This document shows positions 1,004 to 55,798 of a DNA stretch of 64,000 bases, one piece after another. The number at the start of each line of letters is the position of its first letter. Positions within the stretch are counted from its first letter, which is position 1. The position numbers and the translations under genes were made by a program. Under the pieces are notes generated by a model. The model worked only from the letters and a program-made list of their open reading frames with translations. It was not told where the DNA came from and did no database searches. The DNA is from an uncultured Pseudomonadales bacterium (GTDB lineage Bacteria > Patescibacteriota > Microgenomatia > UBA1400 > UBA1449): positions 5,880 to 69,879 of the forward strand of contig CAYLQQ010000003.1 in NCBI GenBank assembly GCA_964386355.1. The letters are read 5' to 3'.

Positions 1004-1399
1004 TCACACCGTTTTTCCCTGCTTTTGTAGGTACTGTTTTACGAAATTGGCTATCTGGCTCGGGGTGTAGTTTGACTTGATCAAGTATTCGACTACTCCA
1101 AGTTCTTTTGCCTTGTGAATCATTGATTGATCTTGCAAATTCGTCAGAATGAGTACAGGAAGATTAGATAGGTCTGGGTTTTCTCTGATTTGCTCGAGCA
1201 CCTGCACTCCGGAAAGCTTGGGCATCATCATGTCCATAATTACAAAATCAGGCGGCAGCTCAGATTTGATTTGCATCAGTGCAGCTTCTCCATCTGAGGC
1301 AACAACCACATCAAAACCTTCGGCTACAAACTTAGTCGAATACATTTTAGCAAGTAGAATATCGTCCTCAACTATAACAAGACGTGGTTTCTCGCTCAT
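1004..1399 (-). CDS. Single-domain response regulator (CheY-like receiver, no output domain)
   Basis: 131 aa with receiver hallmarks (LVIVEDD..., phospho-acceptor D in FVIMDMMMP, conserved T/K region). Stop is TGA, 3 nt downstream of the HK gene. Confidence 0.85.
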   Translation of the reverse strand: MSEKPRLVIVEDDILLAKMYSTKFVAEGFDVVVASDGEAALMQIKSELPPDFVIMDMMMPKLSGVQVLEQIRENPDLSNLPVLILTNLQDQSMIHKAKELGVVEYLIKSNYTPSQIANFVKQYLQKQGKTV

Positions 1400-1402
1400 A
1401 TT

Positions 1403-3529
1403 TTATTTTTTAATTGGTAGTTCAAACCAGAAATTACTTCCCTTACCAAACTCAGATTCAATCCCAATTGTACCACCAAATTTTTCTACTAATAATTTAG
1501 TAATATACAAACCTAATCCAGTCCCCAATGTAGTGCCAGCACTTGATTGTGCCCTATAAAACTTGGTAAACAGTTTGTCTCGCTCATCATCAGCCATACC
1601 TCTGCCTGTATCAGTGATGCTGAATAGAATATAACCCGCTCTGTGGTTTGATAATCTCACTGTAACAGATCCGACATCAGTATACTTAATGGAGTTGCTA
1701 ATCAGATTGGCAACAACCTCATGGATCCTATCTCTATCGACATGCACACTATCCTGAATTCCTTTTTCAATTTCGAGTGAGTACTCCAAAAGCTTGTCTT
1801 TTGCTACAGTAATAAACTCATTGAAACCCTCCTTCACTACCCCAGCAAGATTTATAGTTCCCATTTCAAATACCAGCCGGTTTTCCTCGATCCTACTAAC
1901 ATTGAGCATGTTATTGACCAGCCGTATCTCCCGCTCTGTCCCCTCTAGAGCTCCTTGGATAAATTCCTCCGCTTTTTTAGGAAGTTTACCTGCATCTCCC
2001 TCCATTATCATAGATAAGTAGCCTTTTACGGCGGTTAAGGGCGCCCGCAAGTCATGGGCAGCGACAGAGATAAACTCGTCTTTACGTTTGTCAATATCTT
2101 TAAGTTTGTCATTGGCTTGTTGCAAACGCTCAGTTGCCTCATCTACCTTCTCTTTCAATTCTTCACTAAATTGTTGGATTTTTCGGTAAGCCAGTGTATT
2201 CTCTATGGCTACTGAAACCTGTTGCCCAAATACAGTCATTAGATTTAAGTCTTCGTGATTATATATCTCACCTGAATTTTTCTGTCCAAGTAATAGTATT
2301 CCCAGTTTGCCGGAATCCTTAGTAAACAGGGGAATAATAAGTGAATAATCAGTTTTGTGAAGTATAGAAACCACTCTCTCATCTTTAGCGTCTTCCAAAA
2401 TGATTGGATTTTTTTTATCTAATATATATTTGATATCGCTATACTCAAGATCTGCAGCTGATCCTCCGATCATATTAGTCTTATCATCAAATGGAATTAT
2501 AAAACTTACTTTCTGAATCTTGATTGCACGGACGATAGTTCTGGAGAGTCTATTTGTAAGTTCCTGTAGTTCAATTGTTGAAGCCATGATACGGGTTAGT
2601 TCGTGCAATACTTCATTTGCATTATACGTATGCCTAAAAAATACTCGATCAGTAAGTGATGCAACTCCACTTCTAAGGGATGGAAAGGAAAAAGCAACTA
2701 ATAGCGCCATGAGCGCGGAAATACTAATGCTGGTTTGATTAAATGCCCCGGGAAACAACAGATTACCAACCCCAAATAGAAACAAAACGTACAAAACTGC
2801 TACGAGTAATACTAAAAGTGTATACATGACTGATCTGGCTACCAGCGTTCTAAACTCCAACAGTCTGTGTCGTATGATAGCGTAGGAAACAATGCTGAGA
2901 AATATAGCAATGTAAATGGGTAATAGTGGTACAAAAGTGCCGTTTTTAAATACAACTGGAAAAATAAAATTAAAGACTAGAATAAGAGTGAAAAGAACAA
3001 AAAAAGCAAAAAATACATATAAGATCCTACTCCTATCTAATCCCTTTAAACGCTTAAATTTAAGCAATATAGATAGAAGCCCTGCAAATACCAAACCGAT
3101 GGTATGCAAACCAAATAGAGGCATGAGTGGTCCAGCCTCAGGAGTAACTACGTTCTGAGCTCCGATTTGTATGGAAACAAATATGGCTGGAGTAAATGCG
3201 ATCACAAACAGAGCTGATGTTATGCTTGTTAAAACATAGACAAGCCAAGGTTTTACCTTTACTTCACGGTCAGGAAATACTGATAAAAATAGGAAAACAA
3301 GCAGATTAATAATAGCGGCGTTAGCCATGATAAAACGGGCAAAAAAGAGCCGCAGTTCATAAGTAGGTAAGACATATACTTGAGAGTTAATGACTAGGTA
3401 GCTGGTTAAAAAAATGATCAGGAGGGCAAACAGGCGGTTCGTCCACGATTTTGGGTTATTTTTATATACCCATATGGCTAGTGGTATATTGATAGTGGTA
3501 AAAATTGCCAGAATAAGATTTGGATCCAT
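1403..3529 (-). CDS. Sensor histidine kinase: ~8 predicted TM helices, GAF-like domain, HisKA, HATPase_c
   Basis: 708 aa. The N-terminal ~290 aa are very hydrophobic with multiple TM segments. H-box FISVAAHDLRAPLT, N/G boxes (SNSIKYT, DTGRGM, GTGLGL). Confidence 0.85.
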   Translation of the reverse strand: MDPNLILAIFTTINIPLAIWVYKNNPKSWTNRLFALLIIFLTSYLVINSQVYVLPTYELRLFFARFIMANAAIINLLVFLFLSVFPDREVKVKPWLVYVLTSITSALFVIAFTPAIFVSIQIGAQNVVTPEAGPLMPLFGLHTIGLVFAGLLSILLKFKRLKGLDRSRILYVFFAFFVLFTLILVFNFIFPVVFKNGTFVPLLPIYIAIFLSIVSYAIIRHRLLEFRTLVARSVMYTLLVLLVAVLYVLFLFGVGNLLFPGAFNQTSISISALMALLVAFSFPSLRSGVASLTDRVFFRHTYNANEVLHELTRIMASTIELQELTNRLSRTIVRAIKIQKVSFIIPFDDKTNMIGGSAADLEYSDIKYILDKKNPIILEDAKDERVVSILHKTDYSLIIPLFTKDSGKLGILLLGQKNSGEIYNHEDLNLMTVFGQQVSVAIENTLAYRKIQQFSEELKEKVDEATERLQQANDKLKDIDKRKDEFISVAAHDLRAPLTAVKGYLSMIMEGDAGKLPKKAEEFIQGALEGTEREIRLVNNMLNVSRIEENRLVFEMGTINLAGVVKEGFNEFITVAKDKLLEYSLEIEKGIQDSVHVDRDRIHEVVANLISNSIKYTDVGSVTVRLSNHRAGYILFSITDTGRGMADDERDKLFTKFYRAQSSAGTTLGTGLGLYITKLLVEKFGGTIGIESEFGKGSNFWFELPIKK

Positions 3530-3580
3530 AAAAACAGTGTAGCAAGCTCGCCTATATGCTGCAACGACAGAGTCTTATCT

Positions 3581-4639
3581 TTATCTCAAAATCTGTTCAA
3601 GGTTAATAAAACTTCTCATGGATTTGTTATGTTTTCCACGTAAAACATCAGATGCAACCTTTGTAATGGCAGCCGAAAAAAGTTGTGTGGCTGTGATAAG
3701 TTGCGGATACCCTGTTAGGTTTGTACCTACATCCAAAACGCTCTCAAGCATTTGCGGGCTATGGTATTCTCGACCAATAATGTTTATGAATACATTGGTT
3801 TTATCCTCAGGTTTAGTAACCGGCTTGCTCAATACGTTTTCATCAAACCCATTAAGGTAATACCTTGAATTAAGATCGGGCTCTATATCATATCGCTCGA
3901 CAATTACTAAACAGCCATTTGCAATATCAAAACCAGATAACACCGGTTTTTTAAACTGCTTAGCTATATGTCTCAAAGCTAATTTGATCTTAAAATTATC
4001 AAAACAGTCAATGATTATGTTCGTATTCTGAACAAAATCACTTAGACTTTCCTCATCAAGTCCCGCATTCCAGCATTCGATCTCAAGATATGGATCGACT
4101 CTGAGCATCTGATTGGCAATTAGTTCAGTTTTTTTCGTCCCGATATCTTTTAAAAAGTACTGTGCCCTATTGAGGTTGTGCGGATCAACAGTATCCATAT
4201 CGGCAATTTTAAATCTGTTGCCGATTCCAAACCGCACAAAAGCCATAGCTACATTACTACCAACACTTAAACCCGCAATGGCTATGTTCGCATGGTATAG
4301 CTGCTCTTGCTCTTCTCTATCTATAAGATTACGGTTCCTAACAGAACGGAGATGAAGTAAATCGAGCTGTTTAGGGAGATGATATACCTCTTGTAGCTCA
4401 TCAAGTACAAGCCATACTCCCATTTGAAAATCCTTCTTCTTGCCCAGGTGCTTTTGATATTTCATTTCACAGCGTTTTTGTCTGTCATTTGCAAAATACA
4501 CTGCAGGATCACCAACCGCAAAACGCTCCAGCATGAGCTGATGATAGAGATCGAAGATACTATAGTTCTGCTTGGTATAATGGGTAATAAAGTCCTGATA
4601 TTGTTTTTGGCTTGACAGGTTTTGAATGTGTTTTTTCAT
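3581..4639 (-). CDS. ThiF/MoeB/E1-like adenylyltransferase-fold protein with ~110-aa N-terminal extension
   Basis: Rossmann nucleotide motif IAGLSVGSNVAMAFVRFGIGN and E1 signature DMDTVDPHNLNRAQYF. Start abuts the stop of the upstream ligase gene (4640). Confidence 0.7.
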   Translation of the reverse strand: MKKHIQNLSSQKQYQDFITHYTKQNYSIFDLYHQLMLERFAVGDPAVYFANDRQKRCEMKYQKHLGKKKDFQMGVWLVLDELQEVYHLPKQLDLLHLRSVRNRNLIDREEQEQLYHANIAIAGLSVGSNVAMAFVRFGIGNRFKIADMDTVDPHNLNRAQYFLKDIGTKKTELIANQMLRVDPYLEIECWNAGLDEESLSDFVQNTNIIIDCFDNFKIKLALRHIAKQFKKPVLSGFDIANGCLVIVERYDIEPDLNSRYYLNGFDENVLSKPVTKPEDKTNVFINIIGREYHSPQMLESVLDVGTNLTGYPQLITATQLFSAAITKVASDVLRGKHNKSMRSFINLEQILR

Positions 4640-6019
4640 TTAGATAAAATGCCTGAACTTACCCAGTTTGACCCAATTAGGATCTTCAATGGGAAATTCG
4701 ACGCGAAAGCGTTCGATCTTTATGCCTTTTTGAACCATACGAAAATCCGGATTTACTTTCATTAGATGTTTATAAAATTCCCTGATAAACTGCCTGCTCT
4801 CTAATTTAGTCATCTCATACCCGTCTTTTAGGTATACTACTAGATTAAGCCTGTTTTTTAGGCCTTTATCTTCCAGTCCATACTGAAAATTACCAGAGAA
4901 CCGGTTCGCAAAGACTGACATTTCCAGACAATACTGCACGTCATCTACATAAATATTATTAAGCAGCCTGACTGCATCTGCCCTGCCATGTACATAGACG
5001 TAGTGTTTACCATTAAGCTCTGAAATTTCTTTTTCACCATGTTCCTTGAGTATATGATTGATCGTTGTCCCGCTTAGCAGGCCTCCCCGATCATTCATAT
5101 CATAACGGATTAGAGGTACTGGTTGCTTGGCCGTCACAATAATATGGTTATCTATCTCCTCAAGAAATTTCACCTCCGGATTATATTCAACCAGGGTGGG
5201 AGGATTTGGGTCCTTAAATAGAGCTTCACAGAGATTTTTACTTCGATACGCTTTTTCTAGAACATCAACAATTTCCCTGGTTTCAATCCCGATAATACCC
5301 GTCTCCGAACAGGCATAAAACCCCATCACATCATACCTAGATCTGGTACCACTTACACGCCTAACCAGGCTATTGCGCTGTTTCTCAGATACCCGAGCGC
5401 TAGTATAGTGAATCTTGGTATTAATTTCAGAAAAATCAAATTTATGTAGGGACCCATACTCGAGTAGATCAACAATAAACGGCGGATAGCCGGTAATGAT
5501 CGTCTGATCATAGTGCTTACCCAAAGCCTTAATGACATTGAATGCCACAACTTTATCAAGTCCGGGAGTGACAACGGAAAGTTTATGTCCTGGTGATGTT
5601 TCCCAGCATAGTTTTGAGGTAAACATCCCAGCTGTCCAAGCTCCCAACCCAAAGGTAACCACCACCAATGTCTTTTTGCTTTCAATATCAAAAAGTCTTT
5701 GATACATAGCTTTATTGAGTTCAGTAACTCGCTTATCAGCTTCAAAATCTCGAGGCCAGCTTGTCGGTTCACCCGTGCTGCCGGAACTAAAACACACCAT
5801 ATAGTAATCAGCAATCTCCTTATCGCTATACAGCCGATCTTCAATGGCATACGTTTCGAGATAATTGTGTTTATTCGTCAGGGGAAGATCTGTAAAATTC
5901 TCTGTAGTGCTGATTTGTGAAGGCATGATATGTTGCTCATACAAGAACTTTTTATATGCTTTGCAACTGCTGCATACAGTGGAGTAGAGTTCAAATGCTT
6001 TTTGTAATCCTGCCTGCAT
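4640..6019 (-). CDS. Adenylate-forming enzyme of the phenylacetate-CoA ligase / CapK / coenzyme F390 synthetase-like family
   Basis: ANL-superfamily phosphate-binding motif FSSGSTGEPT and an IRYDMNDRG motif resembling the YRTGD box. 459 aa, the size of PaaK-like enzymes. 3-nt gap to the upstream MIO gene. Confidence 0.65.
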   Translation of the reverse strand: MQAGLQKAFELYSTVCSSCKAYKKFLYEQHIMPSQISTTENFTDLPLTNKHNYLETYAIEDRLYSDKEIADYYMVCFSSGSTGEPTSWPRDFEADKRVTELNKAMYQRLFDIESKKTLVVVTFGLGAWTAGMFTSKLCWETSPGHKLSVVTPGLDKVVAFNVIKALGKHYDQTIITGYPPFIVDLLEYGSLHKFDFSEINTKIHYTSARVSEKQRNSLVRRVSGTRSRYDVMGFYACSETGIIGIETREIVDVLEKAYRSKNLCEALFKDPNPPTLVEYNPEVKFLEEIDNHIIVTAKQPVPLIRYDMNDRGGLLSGTTINHILKEHGEKEISELNGKHYVYVHGRADAVRLLNNIYVDDVQYCLEMSVFANRFSGNFQYGLEDKGLKNRLNLVVYLKDGYEMTKLESRQFIREFYKHLMKVNPDFRMVQKGIKIERFRVEFPIEDPNWVKLGKFRHFI

Positions 6020-6022
6020 ACC

Positions 6023-7699
6023 TTAATCAAGTAATGAAATTAGTAATGTTCTAAATGTATCAGTTTTTAGTTTTTCTGCTACCAATTCAATGTAGGGTCC
6101 CAAAGGCATTTCTTTTTTTATAAAGGGAACCTCTTTACGGATCTGTTCATATACCTGTTTAGTTACGGGAGACAGTTTTTTGGGACCATCGCGAAGATCA
6201 ATAGCCTGCATCAAGGCAATCAGAAGTTGGGCCAGTGAGTACCAGGTTACTTGTAAGTTTTCCCTGCCTAAGATACCAGATGTCATAGCATGAGAAGTCA
6301 CGTCCTGATTGTTTTGTTCGTGAACACCAAAAAGTGTAGAAACTGGTGTTGCCAACACCATAGAATAAACATCAAACATACCTGCTTGTGCCTGAATACC
6401 TTTAAAAGTGCACTGTGAAATTGCATCCTGGTGTGAAAGATTAGCAGGTAGACCGTTATTTTCATGAGGGTCAATGAGTTTTGACAGATGTCTGTCATTA
6501 ATTTTAACTACATGAGTTAATATTTTTCGCAACGTATCAGTAACTTCAACCATATACTCAGCCAGGAAATTTCCTCCGCTAACCCATTGCCCAGCTGTTT
6601 CACCTGCCAAAGCATACTCTTCAGTAACCCATAAAGGATTATCAGAGGCTCCGTTAGCATTTGTTTCAATCACGTCTAGTGCCCACTTAACACGCTCCCA
6701 CGAAATACCCAAAAATTGGGCTTGGCAACGCAAACTGTATACATCCTGAACTTTACGTCCTTCAACATGAGGTAAAAGTTCCTGCAATTCATCTCTCACA
6801 TATTTGCTGCCCCCAAGCACTCGTCTCAGTATTGCTGAAACTTCAATTTGCCCACTATGTGCCCGAACTTGAGACAACATGGGGTGTAATGATCTATTAG
6901 TACCCTCAAGAGCCTCTATAACCATAGATCCGGTTATCACCTGAGTTAAGAGTACAAAAACTGTTTCGCGAGCTAAATGAAAAGCACTTGCAGTTGAAAA
7001 ATTATCTCCATTGACCAATCCCAATCCCGTTTTGGGGTCAAGTACAAGGGTTTTAAATTTGTGATTTTTAAGTGCGGTTGGACCATCTTCAAAACCATAC
7101 TTTCCCCAAACCTTGGTGCCTGGCAGCTGCCGCATCAAACTGAGAACTCTCCCGTTTTGAGGTAGATCTCCTGAGGCTCCTAAGCCTCCATAACTACCAA
7201 CCACAGGAATAATGTCATGGTTTAATAACTGACAAAACATATCAATATCGGCAATCTTAACTGCACTAACTCCCTTTAACAGCATGTTTGCCCTGATTCC
7301 CATTGCAGCCCGAGTTATTTCTTTAGGTACGGCTGGACCTGTGGACACATCTACATGAACGATGCTTTCAGAAATACGTCTAGCCTGATCCAAACGCTGT
7401 GTTTTTGTACCTTTATTTAGAACCAAATTAGCCTGACCACCATAGCCCGTATTAATACCATACATGGGAATTCCCCGAAAAACATGGTCCATCATATGCT
7501 CATAACAATCCATGACTCGTTTCAAAACATTACTGTCTTCTGTGACCCTAACTGTAGAAGAATTACGAGCGATACTATTTATTTCTTGTAATTTCAGGTG
7601 AGATCCGTCAAGTATTACCTCTTTGGTGCGTTCCTGTAGCTGTTTAGCACACTCAGAAAGAGTGTAATTTTGATAAGTAGACTTATTTTGGAATTTCAT
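6023..7699 (-). CDS. MIO-dependent aromatic amino-acid ammonia-lyase/aminomutase (HAL/PAL/TAL family)
   Basis: 558 aa. Ala-Ser-Gly MIO-forming triad in GGLGASGDLPQNGRV, and N-terminal MYGINTGYGG motif matching YGxxTGFG of HAL/PAL. First gene of the 5-gene operon. A promoter region and upstream terminator lie at 7700-7880. Confidence 0.8.
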   Translation of the reverse strand: MKFQNKSTYQNYTLSECAKQLQERTKEVILDGSHLKLQEINSIARNSSTVRVTEDSNVLKRVMDCYEHMMDHVFRGIPMYGINTGYGGQANLVLNKGTKTQRLDQARRISESIVHVDVSTGPAVPKEITRAAMGIRANMLLKGVSAVKIADIDMFCQLLNHDIIPVVGSYGGLGASGDLPQNGRVLSLMRQLPGTKVWGKYGFEDGPTALKNHKFKTLVLDPKTGLGLVNGDNFSTASAFHLARETVFVLLTQVITGSMVIEALEGTNRSLHPMLSQVRAHSGQIEVSAILRRVLGGSKYVRDELQELLPHVEGRKVQDVYSLRCQAQFLGISWERVKWALDVIETNANGASDNPLWVTEEYALAGETAGQWVSGGNFLAEYMVEVTDTLRKILTHVVKINDRHLSKLIDPHENNGLPANLSHQDAISQCTFKGIQAQAGMFDVYSMVLATPVSTLFGVHEQNNQDVTSHAMTSGILGRENLQVTWYSLAQLLIALMQAIDLRDGPKKLSPVTKQVYEQIRKEVPFIKKEMPLGPYIELVAEKLKTDTFRTLLISLLD

Positions 7700-7842
7700 A
7701 GCTGTAGTTTTGTTCTATATGACTTATTAAGAAACACCTTTTAGCTTATAGGATTTGATTCTAAACTTCAACAGATACAAACTGGCATAGTTTGATAATA
7801 ATGCAGCTTTTACTACTAACTAAGTATTTATTGGTATACACA

Positions 7843-7878
7843 AAAAAAATAGCCTCCCACAAATTGAGAGGCTATTTT
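7843..7878. terminator. Bidirectional rho-independent terminator hairpin (tagcctc...gaggcta) with A-run on one side and T-run on the other
   Basis: aaaaaaaa TAGCCTC ccacaaattga GAGGCTA tttt. On the minus strand it terminates the rpsA/small-ORF transcript upstream of the MIO operon promoter. Confidence 0.6.
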
Positions 7879-8059: not shown

Positions 8060-9523
8060 TTACTTGTAACCTACTGGTTTAGCAGATAAAACTACACCAA
8101 GGCTGATACGGTGATTCTCTTTATCTAAAGATTCGATATACACATCAACATTGTCACCGATTTTAATATCCATATCCGATGGGAACTTGGATACGTGGAT
8201 CAATCCCTCAATTCCTTTTTCTATCTCGACAAAAGCACCGAATGCTGCCAGTCTGGTAACTTTCCCTTTAACCTTAGCGTCCACAGGGAACCTGGTCGCA
8301 ATCTCATCCCATGGATCAGATGACAAACGTTTGATAGAAAGATTGAGCTTACCGGTCTTGCGGTCTACTTCAATAACCTGGACGGTTACCATATCTCCCA
8401 CTTTATAAAGCCTGGTAACATCGTTGACCTTTTCCCATGACAGCTCAGAAATATGTACCAAACCATCCAAGAAGGCGCCTATTTCCTGATCGTCTTCTAA
8501 AAAGACACGCACAAATATACCAAAAGCCATCACACCAGATACCTGTCCCTTGTACTTGTTACCCACCTTAACGGTAGTCAACATATCCTGCTGGTGACTG
8601 ATAACTTCTGATTCAGATACAGCTTTCTCTGAAAAAATAAGCCGGTTCTTCTCACGGTCAACTTCGATCACTTTTACTGGAAATACCTTGTTGTACAGTT
8701 GATCGAGTTTACCCATCCACTGGCGACCGAACTGGGATACGGGAATAAACCCACGCACATTCATGAGCCGTGCAATCATACCGCCACGGTTGATATCCAA
8801 ACCACGTACCTCAACTGTTTCTCCCATATCCATATACTTTTGGAACAAGGACCATTTCCAATCATTGGCAGCCCTGGCCAACGATATAAGAATCTGGCCT
8901 TTTTCATTTTCAGGAGATACAACAGTTGCTTTTACAATATCTCCTACTTCCAAAAAGCGGATATAGTCTTCGACAAGCTCCATCTCTTTTTCAAGCAGAA
9001 TACCTTCAGTCTTAGCACCAATATCAAAAAACAGCGTTTTCTTGTTTTTATCAGTGATTGTTGCCTTGACTTCCTGACCTTTTTTAAGTCCCTGCAACTC
9101 ATATCCGGTCATAGAAAACAGTTCTTCCATTGAATTGGGAAGTTCGGTCAGGTCTTTCAACTCATGATTGACGGTTTTTTCAACCAGGGTCTCTTTAATG
9201 ACCTGAAGCGCTAAGCTCTCATCAAGATTATTTTCTGTTGGTGCTTGAGTTTTCTTTTCTGTTGGTTTTGATTCCGTTTTCTTTGCCTTTTTCTCGACTT
9301 TTATACGCTTCTCTTCAGAAACTACATCATCTGCCTTGACGACTTGTTCAACGGTTTCCATAACTGTTTTCTTTGTCTTTTTTGCAGATTTTGTTTCAGC
9401 ATTTTTAGCTGTTTTGACTTCCTTCTTTACTGCTGTTTTCTTTGGAGATTTTTTTACTACCTCCTCTGTATCAGATTTTTTTATTTTTTTTGTTTTTGCT
9501 ATTGCTGGCATAATAAAATCCAC
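8060..9523 (-). CDS. rpsA: 30S ribosomal protein S1 (four S1 domains) with ~110-aa lysine/alanine-rich N-terminal extension
   Basis: Repeated S1-domain motifs (GxV.G.V..I...G.FV.L..G..G..H.S). N-terminus KKxK-rich and low-complexity. Confidence 0.8.
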   Translation of the reverse strand: MDFIMPAIAKTKKIKKSDTEEVVKKSPKKTAVKKEVKTAKNAETKSAKKTKKTVMETVEQVVKADDVVSEEKRIKVEKKAKKTESKPTEKKTQAPTENNLDESLALQVIKETLVEKTVNHELKDLTELPNSMEELFSMTGYELQGLKKGQEVKATITDKNKKTLFFDIGAKTEGILLEKEMELVEDYIRFLEVGDIVKATVVSPENEKGQILISLARAANDWKWSLFQKYMDMGETVEVRGLDINRGGMIARLMNVRGFIPVSQFGRQWMGKLDQLYNKVFPVKVIEVDREKNRLIFSEKAVSESEVISHQQDMLTTVKVGNKYKGQVSGVMAFGIFVRVFLEDDQEIGAFLDGLVHISELSWEKVNDVTRLYKVGDMVTVQVIEVDRKTGKLNLSIKRLSSDPWDEIATRFPVDAKVKGKVTRLAAFGAFVEIEKGIEGLIHVSKFPSDMDIKIGDNVDVYIESLDKENHRISLGVVLSAKPVGYK

Positions 9524-10377: not shown

Positions 10378-10497
10378 TTCCGGTCTCGGCTTATTTTCAC
10401 AAAAGCTTGTGCTATCACTATCGTCAGCGCTGGAGCGTTTCAAGACTCTGTTCGGAATGGGAAGAGTTGGTACCACCCCGCTTCAGAAACCGGAACA
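10378..10497 (-). rRNA. rrf: 5S rRNA
   Basis: Reverse complement contains CCCATTCCGAACAGAGTCTTGAAACGCTCCAGCGCTGACGATAGTG, matching the 5S consensus CCCATGCCGAACTCAGAAGTGAAACGCCGTAGCGCCGATGGTAGTG. Helix I pairing between the termini (UGUUCCGGU / ACCGGAAC). Confidence 0.75.
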
Positions 10498-10998
10498 CGA
10501 AAATCAAAATGACAAAGTGCGTTCTACTTTGTCATCCTGAAACCGACGCAATAGCAGTCGATATTCAGGATCTATAGAAATAACTACTATAGATTCCGGA
10601 TAAGGCTAAGGCCTTTACCGGAATGACATTTCAACTTTTAGTCCTTCAAAAAGTGAATAGAAGTTTTTTCATAATTGCTTTAAAAAGATCACAAGCAATT
10701 TCTTTCATCGATCGATACGTATCTGCTTAGCTTAATGCATTACTGCACGTACACCCGCAGTCGTTATACCTGGTGTTCTACCAGGGATCTCTCTCCCGAT
10801 AAATCGGGAATGGATTCCTCATCTTGGGATCGGCTTCCCGCTTCAGATGCTTTCAGCGGTTATCCGTTGGCAATGTAGCTATCCAGCCATGCCGCTGACG
10901 CGACAACTGGCGTACTAGGGATTGCCTCACCCCGGTCCTCTCGTACTAGGGGCAACTTCCCTCAAGAATCCTGCGCATACACCGGATAGAGACCGACA

Positions 10999-11823
10999 TT
11001 ATTGTTATTTCAAAAATTTGAAAGTAAGCTACTTTGGTGCTTACTCCTCACATCACTATGAGGGTCCGACCATATCTTTACCAATTTATATTGATATCTG
11101 ACGTATGGCCTGTGAGGATTCTAAGGTATATGATTTCACAATTTCGTTCTTTGAAAATTTACGTTTACCTGTATTCATCGCTAAACTTATATCTATAATT
11201 TGTTCAATTCCTGCTCTAGTTAAATGTTTTTTGACACTCACCAGATTAAGAACTTGTTCAAACTGTTCACAAGCTTTGCGCTTAATGATAAGTTTATCCT
11301 TTACAAAAGGTAAAACTTTGGTTTGTAAACTTTTCAAATCCCGAACTACAAATGCAAGTGATTTATCTGAAAAATAATCTTTCTTGTGGTTTAGTTTTAC
11401 ATAACCGCAGTCAAGCCGCTTCTGTAAATAATCTAATACCATTTTACCTTGAGGGTTCTGAGATACTTTAAAAAAATAAATAACTTGCCAACCTGTTTTA
11501 GTTTCTTTGGCTGGCACAATACTTACATAAAACATCCCTTCCCCTTCAATAAAACCTCTCAGATACTCATCACTTATCTGTAGACTCATATACTCTAGTC
11601 TTTCCTGCTGATTGTCTTGCTCGCATATCCGAAGCGAACCAGCATACATTTTTACTAGTATATAAAATATATACTAAGTAGTCTGCTGTTATCAAGATGT
11701 TCCAGCATATAGTCAGATTTATATCCCTAAATTCTAATATTTGGACAAAAAGAAAAAAATTAAACGAGACATCGATAGGGAGAGACAGTTCGAATGTCAC
11801 CACCAAATGTTAAAGGTGGTCAG
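10999..11823 (-). mobile_element. Group-I-type intron inserted in 23S rRNA domain V (near E. coli position ~2593) carrying a homing endonuclease ORF
   Basis: Exon sequence ...GUGAGACAG | insertion | (U)GUCGGUCUCUAUCC..., where E. coli has GAGACAGUUCGGUCCCUAUC. The insertion contains a LAGLIDADG ORF. Boundaries approximate to within +/-5 nt. Confidence 0.65.
11086..11649 (-). CDS. Single-motif LAGLIDADG homing endonuclease (I-CreI-like), intron-encoded
   Basis: 187 aa with the motif LRGFIEGEGMFYV (LAGLIDADG class). Located wholly inside the 23S insertion. Confidence 0.85.
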   Translation of the reverse strand: MYAGSLRICEQDNQQERLEYMSLQISDEYLRGFIEGEGMFYVSIVPAKETKTGWQVIYFFKVSQNPQGKMVLDYLQKRLDCGYVKLNHKKDYFSDKSLAFVVRDLKSLQTKVLPFVKDKLIIKRKACEQFEQVLNLVSVKKHLTRAGIEQIIDISLAMNTGKRKFSKNEIVKSYTLESSQAIRQISI

Positions 11824-11969
11824 CTGTCTCACGACGCTCTGAACCCAGCTCACGTAGCGTTTTAATGGGCGAACAGACCAACCCTTGGGACCTTCTACAG
11901 CCCCAGGATACGCTGAGCCGACATCGTGGTGCCAAACCGCGCCGTCGCTGTGGACGCTTGGGCGCGATC

Positions 11970-12000
<31 letters not shown>

Positions 12001-14609
12001 ATAAGCTCCGTGTGTTCCATGCCACAACGGAGGATCACTATGACCGACTTTCGTCCCTGCTCCACTTGTAAGTGTCACAGTCAAGCATGCTTCATGCCAT
12101 TATACATACACTGCGATTTCCATCCGCAGCAAGCATACCTTTGTACGTTTGCGGTACAATTTAGCAAACCAGCGCCCCACTGAAACTGCCCATCAAACAC
12201 TGTCCCTTTTGCGGTTAGCAAATAGGTGAGAATTATTTAATTCCAAGAGCGGTATTCCACTGACCGATTCCGATAAATCGGAACCGTCCCGCCTATTCTC
12301 GACAATAAAACTAAATAATTCAATGCCAGACTGCAGTAAAGCTCCACGGGGTCTTTTTGTCCAGGTGTATGTAGGCCGCATCTTCACAGCCATTGCAATC
12401 TTCGCCGAGTCGATGGTCAAGACAGTTCTCAAGTCATTACACCTTTCGTGCGCGTCGGAACTTACCCGACAAGGTACTTCGCTACCATAGAACAGTTATA
12501 GTTACTGCTGCCGTTCACCGGGGCTTCGATGAGAAGCAAGATGGACCTTACGGCCCAACCACTCCCGCACTTAACCTTCCGGCACTGGGCAGGCCTCAGC
12601 CCGTATACATCAGCTTTCGCTTTAGCACAGACCTGTGTTTTTGTTAAACAGTTGCTTGAGATTCGTTTGTTGCAGCCCCTATTGCTAGAGGCAGGACATC
12701 TACCGAAGGTACGTCCAGCTAATTTGCCTAGTTCCTTAACCATCGTTCTCTCGCTCGTCTTGGTCTACTCGACCTTCCCACCTGTGTCGGTTTTAGTACG
12801 GATAGAAAACGTACGTTTTAGAGGTTTTTCTTGGAAATATAAAAGTTCAAGGTTAATCCCGACAAGTCGGGACTTCCCCATACAGCTCGTGTAAACGCCA
12901 TGGCGGATTTACCTACCACGACTGCCTCGCTGTCCGGACCGCAATTCAATAAGCGGCCTTGGCTCTCACGTTTCGTCACCCCATCAACATAGTACGTCTC
13001 CCAGTACAGGAATATTAACCTGTTGTCCATCAGCTACGCCAATTGGCCTCGCCTTAGGGCCGACTCACCCGTTCTCGACGACCGTTGGAACGGAAACCTT
13101 GGGATTTCGACGGAAAAGATTCTCACTTTTCTTTCGCTACTCATACTAGCATTCTCACTTGATGCCGCTCCAGCCAGCCTTACAGCCAACCTTCACTGCT
13201 GACATCAACGCTCCCCTACCACTCCTCATCTTGCGATAAGAAATCTCTAATTTCGGTATACTGCTTAACTCTCGTGAAATTTTCGGTGCCTTCCATCCAA
13301 ATCGACTAGTAAGCTGTTACGCTATTTTTAAAGGATGGCTGCTTCTAAGCCGACCTCCTAGCTGTTTAAGATGAAAAACTCCCTTCCTGTATTAACAGTA
13401 ATTTTGAGACCTTAATTGAGAGTCTGGGATGTTTCCCTTTTGCCCATGGAGCTTAGCCCCCACAGACTAACTCTTTATAGTTGTCATCGGTATTCGGAGT
13501 TTGGTTGAGTACCAGGCCACAAGGACCAAGCACCCATCCAGTAGCTCTACCTCCAATGACACAAGATTAAAAGGCTATGCCTAAACATATTTCGGGGAGA
13601 ACCAGCTATCTCCAGGTACGATAAGTATTTTGCTCCGACCCACAAGTCATCCAAAAAGTTTTCAGCCTTAACTGGTGCGGGCCTCCCTCCGATATTACTC
13701 GAAGTTCACCCTGCTCATGGGTAGCTCACCTGGTTTCGGGTCTGCCACATACTGCTGATTCGGGCTATTCACCCTCGCTTTCACTACGCCTTCCCCTTAT
13801 AAAGGGTTAGACTTGCAATATATGAGCAACTCGCTAGTTCATTCTTCAATAGGCACGCGATCATCCCGATTTGCATCGGGACTCTCACTGTTTGTTAGCA
13901 GACAATTTCAGGTTCTATTTCACTGGGTCTCTCACCCTTCTTTTCACCTTTCCCTCACGGTACTTGTACGCTATCGGTAGTTTCAAGTATTTAGCCTTAC
14001 CCCATGGTCGGGGTAGATTCCTCCCGAAGTTTACCGTCTTCTGGAGTACTCAGGATACTTCTAGGGTCATCTCGTCTTTAAAATACAGGGCTGTCACCTT
14101 CTATGGCTCGCCGTTCCAGGCTATTCTTCTAGATTTGATAATCCCATATTGAAGTCCTACAACCTCCTGCATAAATGCAGAATTTGGGCTGTTTCCTATT
14201 CGCTCGTCGCTACTAAGGAAATCTCATTCGATTTATATTCCTCTGGTTACTTAGATATTTCAGTTCACCAGGTTACCATCATCAATCACAAGGATTGACG
14301 ATCATCCCACTTGCGTAGGATGGGGTTTCCCCATTCGGAGACCACCGGGTTATAGGTTGTTGGTACCTAACCGGTGCGTTTCGCCACCAACCGCGTCCTT
14401 CTTCGGCTTGAAACTCCAAGGCATCTGTTGTCTGCTTGAGTAAAAGAAATTGTTCATGAATCTTTTCAAAGCGTTATATGAACGATTGCATATACATACA
14501 TATATACACTTTACTTCTATTCACTTTTTAAAGAACCAAATTGTGCTGTTTCACAGCTTCAGGACAAGTCCGTTCGACTCACCCTGTTCTGAGAACCAAC
14601 AGTATTTAG

Positions 14610-14682
14610 TGGACCTGAGGAGGCTCGAACTCCTTGCCTCTACATTGCAAATGTAGCGCTCTACCAGGTGAGCTACAGGCCC
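14610..14682 (-). tRNA. tRNA-Ala (anticodon UGC)
   Basis: RC = GGGCCTGTAGCTCACCTGGTAGAGCGCTACATTTGCAATGTAGAGGCAAGGAGTTCGAGCCTCCTCAGGTCCA. Full cloverleaf, anticodon loop TTTGCAA, G3:U70 Ala identity pair. Confidence 0.9.
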
Positions 14683-14900
14683 AAAGTTCAAACCATTCCT
14701 AAGCACTTCATAAGGCTAAAAAGAGCTATTAACTAAAAAAGTCTCCCTGAGGAGACTTTGAAACAAACCACTAATACACAGTTTTACCTTATGAAAAATT
14801 TCTGTGTATAAAAATGGATGTCTTTATTCAAAATCATTTTCCTCATGAAATAACTGCCTTTTATGGCAAATGGTATTTTAACAGAGACTTACCTCCCGCG

Positions 14901-15200
14901 TCAAATGGTATTTATAGTTGATGCGAAGATAATTAATACCACTCCTAATAACAACTCAATACCCAATATAACAAATGATGCTTGATTTAACCATTTAGCT
15001 GTTGTGGGGTATATCTTTTTTAGGGAGTAATAGTATATTGCACCCGCCAATACAGGAGAGAATATCATCGTCACTATTGCCCATGCTTTCTGTCCGCGAT
15101 TTAGCACTCCGTTTTGCTTTTTTATTTTTGATAAAAGGAAAAAAGCAGATAAAGTAAAAAATAGACCAATAGTGCGGATTAAAACACTATAATCTTCCAT
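14901..15200 (-). CDS. Small membrane protein, hypothetical (2-3 TM)
   Basis: Track ORF 14901-15230 begins with a TTG that abuts the tRNA-like sequence. The first ATG (15198-15200, MEDYSVLIRT...) is the more plausible start. The protein is hydrophobic. Confidence 0.4.
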   Translation of the reverse strand: MEDYSVLIRTIGLFFTLSAFFLLSKIKKQNGVLNRGQKAWAIVTMIFSPVLAGAIYYYSLKKIYPTTAKWLNQASFVILGIELLLGVVLIIFASTINTI

Positions 15201-15230
15201 GCTGATTATTTTGAAGTAATATTTTGACAA

Positions 15231-15308
15231 TGGGTGACCATGGTTTGTAAACCAAGTACCCCAAGGCTTACCAAACCGCAGTGCTCTACCAATTGAACCG
15301 CTCTGTCA
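15231..15308 (-). pseudogene. Degenerate tRNA-like sequence (partial duplicate of the adjacent tRNA-Ile; acceptor and T-arm do not fold canonically)
   Basis: Shares tgggtgaccatggttt...gctctaccaattga with tRNA-Ile 20 nt away. The 5' acceptor strand (TGACAGAG) cannot pair with the 3' GGTCACCC, and the T-loop is mutated (CTTGGTTTACAAACCATG). Confidence 0.3.
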
Positions 15309-15326
15309 ATCAAGACTATTATTAAG

Positions 15327-15399
15327 TGGGTGACCATGGTTTCGAACCATGTACCTCAGTCTTATCAGGACTGCGCTCTACCAATTGAGCTAGTCACCC
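15327..15399 (-). tRNA. tRNA-Ile (anticodon GAU)
   Basis: RC = GGGTGACTAGCTCAATTGGTAGAGCGCAGTCCTGATAAGACTGAGGTACATGGTTCGAAACCATGGTCACCCA. Canonical cloverleaf, anticodon loop CTGATAA. Confidence 0.9.
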
Positions 15400-15785
15400 A
15401 TAAATACATTTTGTTATATAACAAAGAGCGTCTTTATTATCCTAGTTTTTCTTACCTTTACAATTGATACTTAACTCTTTGAGTTAAGTACGTCCTCACA
15501 GTCCAGGCTATTCACCCAACACAACCACGTATTTTACCAAATTTCCCATCATTTTGTATTCACAAGTTTTAAGGCCTATACACTCTTTTAAATACATAAG
15601 AGTATTTTTCTTTAGACAGGTAAATCAGAGATGCCTTAATGTTTATGTAAGTTTGATAAGAAATTGATATATCTGTTCTTTTAACAATCTAACTATCCGT
15701 ATTCTCTTTTTCATCCTCTTTTCATACTCTTGGGTTAAAGTAATACATATACTATTACATTATTTATATAAGTTAGGAGAACAGT

Positions 15786-16388
15786 ATGCCATTTACCATT
15801 GACCCCCTTCCATACTCATCAGATGCACTAGAGCCCTTTATTGATAAAGAAACTATGCTCCTACATCACGACAAACACCACCAAACATATGCTGATAAAC
15901 TAAATTTAGCTTTGGAAAAATACCCTAAATTATATGAACAGTCACTGGAAAGTCTACTTTCTAATCTGGAAACGGTTCCAACTGATATCCGCACGTCTGT
16001 GAAAAACCATGGTGGTGGCGTTCACAACCACAACCTGTTTTGGAAGATGCTTGCACCAAAGCAGGAAGCAAGCGAAACAATCAAACAAGCTTTGTCTCAA
16101 TCATTTGGAAGTTTTGAGCAGTTTAAAGATCAGTTTGCCCAATCGGCTTTAAACCATTTTGGAAGCGGGTGGGCTTGGCTTGTCAAAGATACCGCTGGAA
16201 AACTTAAAATCTATTCACTTCCCAATCAAGACAGTCCTCTAAGCCAAGGTGATATACCCATTTTGGCTTTGGATGTCTGGGAACATGCCTACTATCTAAA
16301 ATATCAAAATAGAAGAGTTGAATATATCCAAACTTGGTGGAACGTAGTAAATTGGATTACTGTTGAGATAAGACTTAGGGAAGGATAA
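15786..16388 (+). CDS. sodA: Fe/Mn superoxide dismutase
   Basis: 200 aa. LPYSSDALEPFIDKETMLLHHDKHHQTY and DVWEHAYYLKYQNRR are signature SOD_Fe motifs. Lies between 16S and 23S on the opposite strand. Confidence 0.9.
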   Translation: MPFTIDPLPYSSDALEPFIDKETMLLHHDKHHQTYADKLNLALEKYPKLYEQSLESLLSNLETVPTDIRTSVKNHGGGVHNHNLFWKMLAPKQEASETIKQALSQSFGSFEQFKDQFAQSALNHFGSGWAWLVKDTAGKLKIYSLPNQDSPLSQGDIPILALDVWEHAYYLKYQNRRVEYIQTWWNVVNWITVEIRLREG

Positions 16389-16414
16389 AATCATGTCTGA
16401 GCTGGTTCTAAATC

Positions 16415-16744
16415 CTACAGATCGCTAATCCAGGGTGGATCATCATCATAACCAATCAGCTGCCCATTTTTTAAAACCCAATTAGTATCCCCTTTCGGGC
16501 CATAGATAAGCCTTCCGTCTTCATTGTCTAACTTACTATCCTCATCAAGAATGTAATAGCCGGTATATCCATTGGGGCCATAAATGTATTTCTCATCTTT
16601 AATATATGTATTGGTATACCCCTTACCAGCTCCATAAATATAACTTCCACGGATTGTATAATCATCATTCGCCATTAGGGTAACGTAGTTCATAATAAAG
16701 ATAAATAGGTAAACATATATTAAGAAAACCAACAAAAAAACCAC
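16415..16744 (-). CDS. Small Tyr/Gly-repeat protein, hypothetical (start uncertain; an internal ATG is more likely than the listed start)
   Basis: Repeated YIYGxxGYT / YGPxG motifs. The listed start overlaps a terminator hairpin, so the true start is probably MANDDY... or MNYV.... Confidence 0.35.
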   Translation of the reverse strand: MVFLLVFLIYVYLFIFIMNYVTLMANDDYTIRGSYIYGAGKGYTNTYIKDEKYIYGPNGYTGYYILDEDSKLDNEDGRLIYGPKGDTNWVLKNGQLIGYDDDPPWISDL

Positions 16745-16763
16745 CCTTATGAGGTGGTTTTTT
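16734..16763. terminator. Bidirectional terminator hairpin (ccacc-cttatga-ggtgg) flanked by an A-run and a T-run
   Basis: aaaaaaa CCACC cttatga GGTGG tttttt, downstream of 16S on the minus strand. Confidence 0.5.
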
Positions 16764-16856
16764 AATTTGAAATACCCAAGACGTGGAAGAAAACTATTTC
16801 CGCTGATTTCTAGAGTTTGATTCTAGATATTTTTTCTACGCATTACTTTGTAGAGG

Positions 16857-16877
16857 AAAAACCCCGCGTGAGTGGGG
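16857..16877 (-). terminator. Terminator-like hairpin immediately 3' of 16S rRNA (CCCCACUCACGCGGGG + UUUUU on the minus strand)
   Basis: Seen 15 nt after the 16S 3' end. Could also be a processing stem. Confidence 0.4.
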
Positions 16878-16887
16878 AAACCAAACT

Positions 16888-18421
<1,534 letters not shown>

Positions 18422-21310: not shown

Positions 21311-22609
21311 CTAATAGTTCTCTACCCTACTCGGGTCAACCATAAAGTCCTGAAGATATTTTCGACCAATGAGAATTTCAGAACGCAAATGCTTTCGGTT
21401 TGAAATATTGGCCAAAGCCCGCACTTTTTGTCCTTGAATCCATAAATCTACCTCTATAACTGGACGGACTTCCTTTCCGAGAGCTGACTTGAATGTTTCC
21501 TCATATAAAATGTTTTTAGTACCCAAGAGCCCCAAATCCTCAGCTAATGTTCTATCAATGCTGACTGAGTAAGCTCCTGTATCCATCTTAGCAATAATCT
21601 CATGCTTGTTACTCTGCCCGTCCTTGATTATTATTTTTTCAAAAATGCCCACAATCTTTCTGCCTTTCTCAGTTTTAACTTTGTCTGAAAAATGTTCAGC
21701 AAAAAGCACTTGAGCTATTTGAATCCCTTTGTTGGGGTCTTGAATATCCAGTTCTTCAATGCGTTTAAGCCTAGCTAAAAGCCCCGCCTGATTAGCCATT
21801 TGGATCTGAAGTCCTGGTTGATCATTGAGCTCAATAACTAACGGACCTTTTTCTTCATCGATAACAATATCCACTCCTATATAGCCCAATTTTGTTGCTT
21901 GTTGACAAGCTACTGCAATCTTGAGTATCTGCTCCCAATACGGAATTACTAGGCCGTTTACTTTCTTACTTGTATTGGGAATATGGCTAATTATCGAGTC
22001 GTAATGTACTCCATGTGTTGTAATACCAGTAGCCATATCAATTCCGAGGGCTACCGCCCCTTGGTGAATATTTGCTTTACCATTACTCTCCTTGGTAGGT
22101 AAACGCAACATAGCCATAACCGGAACACTGTTAAAAACGATCACCCGAACATCGGGCGTGCCTTGGTAGGCATACTTTCGAAATTTGGGGTGTATTTTTA
22201 CCCGTTGTTCTATAAATGCTTGGTCAGGTGTTCTATTTCTTGAATATGAACCTTCGACTATATCCATAGCATGAAGTTGCAGATCTTCCTCATTCACTGT
22301 TCCCCCGTTCATTAGCAGCCACCTTCCTTCCTGTTCAGTTACCTTCTTAATTACCAGAATACCCTCACCCCCATACCCTTCACTAGGCTTAACAACAAAG
22401 CCTTCTTTTAATGCAATCCAGTTGAATGACCGTATATCACTATAGGAACGCAGCACTTTGATGAGCTTAGGATGAGGTATAGAGTTCCGTTTCAGGATTT
22501 TCTTAGTTAAAAGTTTAGAGTCCGCTATCTTACGAGCACTGTGGGAATTGAGTCCGAGATAGTTAAGATTTCGGGCATTCATGCCCAAAATATGATGCAG
22601 TTTGGCCAT
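21311..22609 (-). CDS. RimK-related ATP-grasp (alpha-L-glutamate ligase-like) fused to a C-terminal retropepsin-like/DUF785 'ATP-dependent zinc protease'-type domain
   Basis: N-terminal ATP-grasp motifs (VVKPSEGYGGEGILV, IELNDQPG). C-terminal IIAKMDTGAYSVSID...VRALANISNR resembles the retropepsin-like DUF785 domain. Confidence 0.6.
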   Translation of the reverse strand: MAKLHHILGMNARNLNYLGLNSHSARKIADSKLLTKKILKRNSIPHPKLIKVLRSYSDIRSFNWIALKEGFVVKPSEGYGGEGILVIKKVTEQEGRWLLMNGGTVNEEDLQLHAMDIVEGSYSRNRTPDQAFIEQRVKIHPKFRKYAYQGTPDVRVIVFNSVPVMAMLRLPTKESNGKANIHQGAVALGIDMATGITTHGVHYDSIISHIPNTSKKVNGLVIPYWEQILKIAVACQQATKLGYIGVDIVIDEEKGPLVIELNDQPGLQIQMANQAGLLARLKRIEELDIQDPNKGIQIAQVLFAEHFSDKVKTEKGRKIVGIFEKIIIKDGQSNKHEIIAKMDTGAYSVSIDRTLAEDLGLLGTKNILYEETFKSALGKEVRPVIEVDLWIQGQKVRALANISNRKHLRSEILIGRKYLQDFMVDPSRVENY

Positions 22610-22611
22610 AC

Positions 22612-55774: not shown

Positions 55775-55798
55775 TGAGAACATTATTCATTGTTTCTG

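Follow-up and report, generated by a model that had tools for sequence, protein, structure and literature searches.

A conserved Patescibacteria operon that may build a small molecule from an aromatic amino acid and sense it

Introduction

The described N-acyl oxazolone pathways are OxzAB from Pseudoalteromonas rubra, TyzACB, and TrzAS (Rv1356c-Rv1355c) from Mycobacterium tuberculosis. Their ThiF-like enzymes TrzS (Rv1355c), TyzB and OxzB have been shown experimentally to be ATP-dependent cyclases of N-acyl aromatic amino acids: TrzS converts N-acyl tryptophan to N-acyl tryptazolone, and TyzB/TyzC and OxzB perform the same conversion with N-acyl tyrosine (PMC12856293, PMC10404671, PMC12596934). 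Both groups that discovered these oxazolones left their physiological role unresolved, mentioning signalling as plausible but unproven. Here we analyze a five-gene operon found in 64,000 nucleotides (nt) of contig CAYLQQ010000003.1 (positions 5,880 to 69,879, forward strand; assembly GCA_964386355.1), the whole of which we call the window. The source genome is deposited as an uncultured Pseudomonadales bacterium and placed by GTDB in the Patescibacteriota (Microgenomatia; UBA1400; UBA1449). The operon encodes a 4-methylideneimidazole-5-one (MIO)-dependent enzyme, a PaaK-fold ligase, an E1-like (ThiF-like) protein (E1), a histidine kinase (HK) and a receiver (response regulator, RR). We tentatively read it as a self-contained module that both makes a small molecule from an aromatic amino acid and senses it, a reading that in our judgment falls just short of an even call.

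Other described systems resemble parts of this gene set. The first two steps of flexirubin biosynthesis in Chitinophaga pinensis are carried out by FlxA, a tyrosine ammonia-lyase (TAL) of the MIO type, and FlxY; this pairing of a tyrosine lyase with a p-coumarate-specific ligase that is not of the plant 4-coumarate:CoA ligase (4CL) type has been demonstrated biochemically (PMC3992019). ClxA, from the biosynthesis of closoxazole, a benzoxazole, is an amide/ester ligase that adenylates an aromatic acid before condensing it. In the CqsA/CqsS, LuxM/LuxN and AgrBD/AgrC circuits, an autoinducer synthase is paired with a multi-pass membrane histidine kinase. The Patescibacteria, or candidate phyla radiation (CPR), combine very small genomes with a presumed life attached to hosts. 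The initial annotation of the window, made from the sequence alone, knew of no described pathway with this gene set. Our full-text literature searches likewise found no paper combining oxazolone, ThiF and histidine kinase and none describing the present cluster in Patescibacteria, but its parts do have precedents in the oxazolone synthetases, FlxA/FlxY and ClxA.

Results

Five adjacent genes form a module conserved across Patescibacteria

The initial annotation had described five tightly packed minus-strand genes, and these open reading frames (ORFs) were confirmed, with exact coordinates, in the window ORF list:

6023-7699, minus strand: MIO-dependent enzyme, 558 amino acids
4640-6019, minus strand: PaaK-fold ligase, 459 amino acids
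3581-4639, minus strand: E1-like (ThiF-like) protein, 352 amino acids
1403-3529, minus strand: histidine kinase (HK), 708 amino acids
1004-1399, minus strand: receiver (RR), 131 amino acids

From the MIO gene to the RR gene the successive gaps are 3, 0, 51 and 3 nt, and the operon is conserved in relatives. Synteny in other genomes, to which the initial annotation had looked for support, was readily found, with at least six other contigs carrying the five-gene set at protein identities of ~40-60%. Four of these loci (L001, L002, L003 and L004) carry all five genes in the same order, the three enzymes being 42-61% identical to those of the window, while in Candidatus Roizmanbacteria (L169 and L170, two assemblies) the RR gene has moved to the front, upstream of the others. 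More distant E1 homologues (28-38% identity) also keep the neighbourhood. A Saccharimonadales genome has the order receiver, ligase, E1 and seven-transmembrane (7TM) kinase. Locus L086 starts with two receivers, a nitroreductase-like protein, a Glu/Leu/Phe/Val-type dehydrogenase, the ligase and E1, followed by a second ORF that is nitroreductase-like by clustering (an alpha/beta hydrolase in the source gene table) and then the 7TM kinase. The record for L004 (contig CAZVTT010000001.1, 953,690 bp) is labelled 'uncultured Gammaproteobacteria bacterium'; both the size of this contig, under 1 Mb, and its gene content look more Patescibacteria-like, and the label may be wrong.

To count neighbours, we scanned Joint Genome Institute (JGI) metagenomes with the E1 alignment, which gave 80 loci, and clustered the neighbouring ORFs. 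Near-identical E1 proteins were collapsed to 75 groups, and the 24 with at least 4 kb on either side were used for all counts. The ligase was present in 22 of these 24 loci and the 7TM kinase in 20, the two occurring together in 20. A nitroreductase-superfamily protein (Acg-type flavin oxidase) was found in 15. In 19 of the 24, an amino-acid-deaminating enzyme lies next to the ligase; nine of these enzymes are ScyB-like tryptophan dehydrogenases, seven are MIO enzymes and three are class I/II aminotransferases. The MIO enzyme and the tryptophan dehydrogenase are mutually exclusive and share one position, immediately upstream of the ligase. The kinase is kept alongside the ligase and E1 as the deaminating enzyme and the oxidase vary, which bears out the proposal in the initial annotation that the kinase and regulator are tied to the enzymes.

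These loci show that a four-gene core (PaaK-fold ligase, Rv1355c/TrzS-type ThiF-like enzyme, 7TM kinase and receiver) is conserved across Patescibacteria lineages. They also show that the slot upstream of the ligase is interchangeable among three kinds of deaminating enzyme. The combination of enzymes and sensor recurs in dozens of related uncultured bacteria.

The E1-like protein best matches oxazolone cyclases

E1 matches PF00899 at 95.7 bits over residues 101-236, preceded by an extension of ~100 amino acids. The initial annotation had compared it to MccB-type peptide-activating E1s; the ThiF core and the extension were both found, but the best match is to Rv1355c/TrzS and not to MccB. The best-scoring model is NF005901 ('Rv1355c family', 179.5 bits), which aligns E1 residues 59-351 with model positions 50-339 and so takes in part of the N-terminal extension. 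The next-best model is ThiF (105.5 bits, cut-off 159); MoeB gives 70.9 bits (cut-off 266). The CPR relatives of E1 score 256-281 bits against the Rv1355c model over positions 8-350, its N-terminal half. The neighbouring oxidase of related clusters scores above the cut-off for Acg-family FMN oxidoreductases (223 against 199) and matches the C-terminal half of the same model. Because the CPR E1 corresponds to one half of Rv1355c and the oxidase to the other, the two together amount to a split TrzS.

The ATP-binding residues of E1 are conserved (G123/S125/G127, D149, R158, K170 and D214), and like the catalytic residues they do not vary among its orthologues. There is no conserved cysteine, as none of its four cysteines is kept among the orthologues. 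The best structural neighbour is AclA (PDB 9egb), and PaaA and MccB are also among the neighbours; however, the N-terminal extension does not superpose on the peptide clamp of MccB (223 residues align). We found no precursor-peptide gene or conserved small ORF in or beside the operon, and by that test E1 is not of the MccB/PaaA type. From these profile matches, E1 is best described as resembling the ThiF half of a Rv1355c/TrzS-type oxazolone cyclase without the flavin-oxidase half. No flavin oxidase of the nitroreductase superfamily was found in the operon, the scanned 64-kb window, L001-L004 or L169, and no amino acid N-acyltransferase of the OxzA/TyzA/TrzA type in the operon or related loci. 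By profile search the E1 family has at least 567 proteins, whose named sources include Roizmanbacteria, Saccharimonadales, Parcubacteria, Berkelbacteria and the 'Patescibacteria group'.

The ligase belongs to a distinct PaaK-fold family

The ligase carries the P-loop SSGSTGEPT (residues 78-86) and the further motifs GYPPF, DRGG, GRxD and a C-terminal lysine, Lys454. These ANL motifs and Lys454 are invariant across 17 ligase orthologues. The protein nevertheless stays below the threshold of every model, reaching 18 bits with AMP-binding and 24.7 bits with PaaK (TIGR02155, cut-off 646.3). The AlphaFold2 (AF2) model (pLDDT 87) has the PaaK fold, and the top 28 Foldseek matches to it are all PaaK-family ligases (best matches at TM-scores of 0.64-0.68), led by BT_0428, PaaK1/2, 2-hydroxyisobutyryl-CoA (2-HIB-CoA) ligase and ClxA. 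The earlier assignment as an ANL/PaaK-like ligase holds for the P-loop and the fold, though not at the level of sequence profiles. A search of the PDB with the ligase sequence returned ClxA as the sole match (E 0.0018; 14-16% identity in the structural alignment), and the NCBIfam FlxY model matches the ligase weakly. At E<=1e-30 the family comprises 310 clusters among 1.84 billion representatives. It is a small, distinct family of PaaK-fold adenylate-forming enzymes in which we found no characterised member; we propose a role in activating and condensing an aryl acid.

Ligase paralogues of ~30% identity are common outside CPR, where GTDB has at least 597 such loci, the bulk of them from Nostocales, Methylococcales and Sorangium. 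A GTDB scan with the ligase alignment found no MIO or E1 gene within 10 kb of these relatives, and they are therefore uninformative on the present pathway. In 44 loci, mostly from Nostocales (L011-L083), the paralogue adjoins Hanks-type Ser/Thr protein kinases; one of them (L012, 5224-12868) has two such kinases (576 and 748 amino acids) and a nitronate-monooxygenase-like gene nearby. This is a second case of a ligase beside sensor kinases.

The MIO enzyme is probably directed at tyrosine

Full-length similarity to PF00221 (350.5 bits, cut-off 27.3, profile positions 1-466) agrees with the MIO identity assigned initially. The expected motifs are present: MYGINTGYGG, which contains Tyr80 (aligned with Tyr78 of AvPAL), the G-A175-S176-G177-D segment with its Ala-Ser-Gly triad, and the carboxylate-binding Arg324 in YSLRC. 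All NCBIfam equivalog cut-offs lie above its scores, which are 243-277 bits for histidine ammonia-lyases (HAL; 243 against a cut-off of 539 for HutH, TIGR01225), 264 for phenylalanine ammonia-lyases (PAL) and 143-223 for aminomutases. The FlxA model gives 203 bits, behind the HAL and PAL models, and the nearest solved structures are cyanobacterial PALs. Clade-specific insertions, each 6-8 residues long, also lie close to the active-site loops of the window enzyme.

His115-Val116 occupies the positions of AvPAL Phe107-Leu108 and is invariant in five orthologues. According to work by Watts and Louie, the selectivity position is reportedly His89 in RsTAL and Phe in PALs, and Watts and colleagues are said to have reported in 2006 that the His-type signature marks tyrosine enzymes. 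FlxA itself is a TAL with HAL-like switch residues, and the selectivity motif is an unreliable guide to specificity (PMC3992019). In more distant CPR clusters, the MIO enzymes are either closest to FlxA or above the tyrosine 2,3-aminomutase cut-off, as in L125 (562.8 against 501). A HAL-like reading of the MIO enzymes in FDO-type clusters, suggested by Ser-His switch residues, was dropped since their nearest NCBIfam model is FlxA, itself HAL-like at these positions. The window protein is an aromatic amino acid ammonia-lyase or aminomutase of a divergent clade, probably directed at tyrosine.

The kinase has an intramembrane sensor and the receiver no output domain

The HK contains, in order, a HisKA_7TM sensor (PF16927, 34.8 bits, cut-off 28.6), an insertion of two transmembrane segments and a GAF domain, HisKA with the phosphoacceptor-position His492, and HATPase_c. 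His492 and the N and G boxes are conserved in the family. A crude hydropathy scan gave ~9 hydrophobic segments; the initial annotation had correctly called a GAF histidine kinase but counted eight segments. It had also stressed the GAF domain, an emphasis that did not hold up: GAF and the two extra helices are a lineage-specific insertion that roughly a third of the family kinases have, while the 7TM region is conserved like the catalytic core (mean top-residue frequency 0.44 vs 0.48). An intramembrane 7TM domain with short loops, as predicted here, suits lipophilic ligands.

As initially annotated, the RR is a stand-alone CheY-like receiver, with an acidic pocket (Asp12/13), Asp56, Thr86 and Lys108. 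The domain scan found no output domain, and thus the response must pass through a protein partner.

Three relatives have an extra gene between kinase and receiver (L001 12245-13069, L002 12068-12673 and L003 12070-12696); there is none in the window. The extra gene of L001 encodes a Bro-N domain protein. In L002 and L003, and slightly further on in L001, there is an opposite-strand ORF of 201-208 amino acids with a signal-peptide-like N-terminus and a C-terminal transmembrane helix. In four relatives (L001 1-1756, L002 3194-6217, L003 1223-6146 and L169 1942-2409), the cluster has genes for type IV pili (PilM, N_methyl pilins) directly upstream of it. The window differs from these in having an S1 gene and the rRNA operon upstream, and the adjacency to pilus genes may simply be inherited gene order.

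Operon boundaries and partner search

The upstream ribosomal protein S1 ORF lies at 8060-9523. Its terminator, at 7878-7846, places the start of the operon between 7845 and 7700:

7846-7878, minus strand: strong intrinsic terminator of the upstream S1 gene, a 14-pair stem with 5 G-C pairs followed by a T run
7700-7845, minus strand: inferred operon leader with promoter, the 146 nt that precede the MIO start codon

The scan called no sigma-70-like site in 7700-7845, and the sole ORF there is a TTG-initiated one of 33 amino acids that overlaps the terminator; the interval is too small to hold a plausible precursor-peptide gene. Inside the operon, only weak terminator-like sites occur, the scanned region holding 10 where shuffling predicts 6.8, in line with the earlier statement that there are no internal terminators. 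On the 3' side of the receiver, ~350 nt of non-coding DNA are followed by an AAA_14 ATPase gene (1-651) that runs off the window and is unrelated to the operon.

The absence of the usual partners, also remarked on initially, was borne out. Pfam scans of 30 further window ORFs, each of at least 210 amino acids, found no hutU/hutI, paa, YcaO or nitroreductase genes. In particular, no paa genes surround the ligase, and the MIO gene has no hutU/hutI beside it in these ORFs or in the syntenic loci. Searching the window by tBLASTn with nitroreductase, tryptophan dehydrogenase and aminotransferase queries returned nothing, and no small window ORF ends in Gly-Gly as a ThiS/MoaD-like carrier would. The sole GNAT among the scanned ORFs is an Acetyltransf_6 protein at 42356-43339, 35 kb from the operon. 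We also considered anti-phage defence and rejected it: PADLOC gave generic similarity of E1 to E1-E2 models and no match for the MIO enzyme, ligase or kinase.

Other features of the window

The remaining gene content is ordinary for CPR/Patescibacteria and includes an rRNA operon, a split transketolase, PGK, FtsH, glycosyltransferases and a PrgI-like protein. The rRNA operon (10378-18421, minus strand) comprises 16S, tRNA-Ile, tRNA-Ala, 23S and 5S. Its 23S match covers 2725 nt against a model of 2925 positions, and between the end of this match (11727) and 5S is an ORF of 187 amino acids (11086-11649) for which a homing endonuclease is a guess. An ORF of 2131 amino acids (25937-32332, plus strand), with an N-terminal MerR-type helix-turn-helix and six LVIVD repeats, directly follows a stretch of very low GC content (24001-26000; 0.234 against ~0.40 elsewhere).

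At 21311-23520 on the minus strand, a gene for an ATP-grasp protein of the 'sugar-transfer associated' type, whose C-terminus is weakly zinc-protease-like, adjoins one for a 7TM_transglut membrane protein; the pair is a candidate for another small system of conjugation or modification. A tyrosine recombinase of the phage-integrase family (56551-57414, plus strand) lies ~700 nt from tRNA-Met (55798-55872) and may mark the edge of an integrated element.

Discussion

A possible make-and-sense module

The initial annotation had proposed a small-molecule pathway with two adenylating enzymes, and our results support it. In the scheme that we propose, the MIO enzyme would remove ammonia from an aromatic amino acid, tyrosine being the likeliest, and so yield an aryl-acrylate, for instance p-coumarate. 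The ligase would adenylate this acid and join it to an amine, in the simplest case that of an amino acid, giving an N-aroyl amino acid, either directly, as the amide ligase ClxA does, or through CoA. E1 would then adenylate the free carboxylate of the conjugate, and attack by the amide oxygen would close a 5(4H)-oxazolone (azlactone), as in the reactions of OxzB, TyzB and TrzS. In most related clusters the additional Acg-type flavin oxidase would desaturate the ring substituent. Since the window clade lacks this oxidase, the product predicted for it is a saturated azlactone of higher reactivity, or a derivative of one, which is the weakest part of the model. The lipophilic product would be detected by the conserved 7TM domain of the kinase, which would phosphorylate the output-less receiver, and the receiver would act by protein-protein contact.

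Two features of the gene set guide this scheme. The first enzyme is interchangeable but always removes the alpha-amino group, which suggests an aryl-pyruvate or aryl-acrylate as the common output. Such acids are the kind of substrate that PaaK-fold ligases activate, and the amino acid is apparently aromatic. Additionally, a cyclase of the TrzS type must be supplied with an N-acyl amino acid; as we found no acyltransferase, the simplest reading has the ligase itself making the amide. A broader proposal, which we consider possible but doubtful, is that azlactone/oxazolone autoinducers made by a deaminating enzyme, an amide ligase and a TrzS-type cyclase form a widespread, so far unrecognised system of signalling between CPR cells or between CPR and host cells, with the 7TM kinases as receptors and the receiver controlling surface machinery such as type IV pili.

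Several points weigh against making and sensing an azlactone. Every chemical step is drawn from family resemblance, and the product is a prediction. The window E1 reaches 179.5 bits where the Rv1355c cut-off, set for the two-domain protein, is 476, and within the CPR family its branch diverges most. The window clade has neither the flavin oxidase nor the GNAT N-acyltransferase that define known oxazolone clusters, and no exporter is conserved in the cluster. The substrate specificity of MIO enzymes is not reliably readable from sequence, and one relative scores as an aminomutase; the acceptor of the ligase may be an amine, CoA or something else. Gene adjacency does not prove product sensing, as the kinase could answer another cue, and with a receiver that has no output domain the downstream response depends on which partner it meets.

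Alternative explanations

The enzymes could instead yield a product with no signalling role, such as a pigment, an antioxidant, an antimicrobial or an acyl donor for modifying the envelope, with the kinase and receiver switching the pathway or a linked response on an external cue. We regard this as unlikely, though it deserves real weight. Biosynthetic clusters often carry regulators, and a two-component system lies beside the scytonemin cluster in Nostoc. The dehydrogenase of related clusters resembles ScyB, an enzyme of a sunscreen pathway; antibiotics induce oxazolone production in proteobacteria, and N-acyl tyrosine derivatives can be antimicrobial (cited in PMC12856293). However, a receiver without a DNA-binding domain is no conventional transcriptional switch, the only conserved sensory part of the kinase is the intramembrane domain suited to lipophilic ligands, and the kinase is retained while the deaminating enzyme and the oxidase change; these features weigh against a non-signal metabolite. 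An improbable variant keeps the pathway but makes the MIO enzyme a 2,3-aminomutase, so that the ligase and E1 would build a conjugate of beta-tyrosine or beta-phenylalanine (an N-acyl beta-amino acid or a six-membered oxazinone). It draws on the L125 enzyme that exceeds the tyrosine 2,3-aminomutase cut-off, on the weaker matches of the window enzyme to aminomutase models and on its insertions near the active-site loops. The same slot is otherwise filled by a dehydrogenase or an aminotransferase, both of which remove the amino group and so point to a deaminated acid as the common output, and other related MIO enzymes are nearest FlxA.

More improbable still is the alternative raised in the initial annotation, in which E1 and the ligase act on a ribosomal peptide or protein to modify its C-terminus, whether as an MccB/PaaA-type system for a ribosomally made, post-translationally modified peptide (RiPP) or in ubiquitin-like (Ubl) conjugation. 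PaaA and MccB are among the structural neighbours of E1, and most characterised ThiF-like enzymes beyond primary metabolism act on peptides (PMC12596934). Yet no conserved small ORF or precursor accompanies the operon, no ORF ends in Gly-Gly, and there is no E2, JAB or Ubl partner; the extension does not fit the MccB clamp, and the family-level match is to small-molecule cyclases. Finally, the genes could be housekeeping or catabolic ones (hut, phenylacetate, or a thiamin/molybdopterin E1) that lie together by chance, as automatic annotation of homologues would have it: 'phenylacetate-CoA ligase' for the ligase and 'molybdopterin/thiamine biosynthesis adenylyltransferase' for E1. This explanation is effectively refuted. 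Scores fall far below the equivalog cut-offs (HutH 243 vs 539, PaaK 24.7 vs 646, ThiF 105 vs 159, MoeB 71 vs 266), the scanned window ORFs include no hutU/I, paa, ThiS or MoaD genes, and synteny with the kinase is conserved.

Significance

A module that makes and senses an aromatic-amino-acid-derived compound may be an undescribed chemical signalling system. A small-molecule pathway tied to its own kinase in Roizmanbacteria, Saccharimonadales, Parcubacteria and Berkelbacteria would be a rare handle on how these bacteria perceive partners or population density, and it offers a candidate receptor and a directly testable hypothesis for oxazolone function. If correct, it would provide the first physiological role and the first receptor for oxazolone natural products. 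It would also represent oxazolone-type biosynthesis by a new logic, with a deaminating enzyme and an ATP-dependent ligase replacing the acyl-CoA N-acyltransferase. The PaaK-fold ligase family may, in addition, hold useful amide-forming biocatalysts.

Comparison with known systems

With MccB and PaaA, the window E1 shares the adenylating core, a ~100-residue N-terminal extension and no requirement for a catalytic cysteine; it differs in an extension that cannot be superposed, in having no precursor peptide and in a family affinity that lies elsewhere. ClxA has the same PaaK fold as the ligase and was the only solved structure found from the ligase sequence. Similarity between the two is very low, and ClxA acts on 3-amino-4-hydroxybenzoate with an amidohydrolase partner. 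The FlxA/FlxY pair is alike in joining an MIO tyrosine lyase to a p-coumarate-activating ligase of the non-plant-4CL type, and the links run through related CPR clusters whose MIO enzymes are nearest the FlxA model and through the weak FlxY match of the window ligase. The window MIO enzyme itself is not FlxA-like (203 bits). Moreover, FlxY feeds a polyene assembly line resembling type II polyketide synthase (PKS) and fatty acid synthase (FAS), whereas here there is no PKS and a ThiF-like cyclase comes next.

The CqsA/CqsS, LuxM/LuxN and AgrBD/AgrC circuits offer a comparable overall design, in which genes for a hydrophobic or amphipathic small molecule stand with a kinase whose sensor is a transmembrane bundle alone and with a cognate receiver. 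The sequences are unrelated, enzymes and chemistry differ, and here the receiver is output-less and sensing of the product is proposed.

The N-acyl oxazolone pathways use a ThiF-like, ATP-dependent cyclase of what appears to be the same family, Rv1355c being the best model for E1 with part of its extension included, and most CPR relatives have, adjacent to E1, an Acg-type oxidase equivalent to the other half of Rv1355c. Those pathways start from aromatic amino acids, as the present one apparently does, and the products here are predicted to be small and lipophilic. Because the window lacks two features of context that define those pathways, the flavin oxidase and the N-acyltransferase, we do not file the module among them. 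Where they have a GNAT N-acyltransferase, it has a PaaK-fold ligase, and a dedicated amino-acid-deaminating enzyme (MIO in the window) is added; the window clade carries no flavin oxidase. Those pathways come from Proteobacteria and Actinomycetota, whereas the present set is found in Patescibacteria and is coupled to a 7TM histidine kinase and a receiver.

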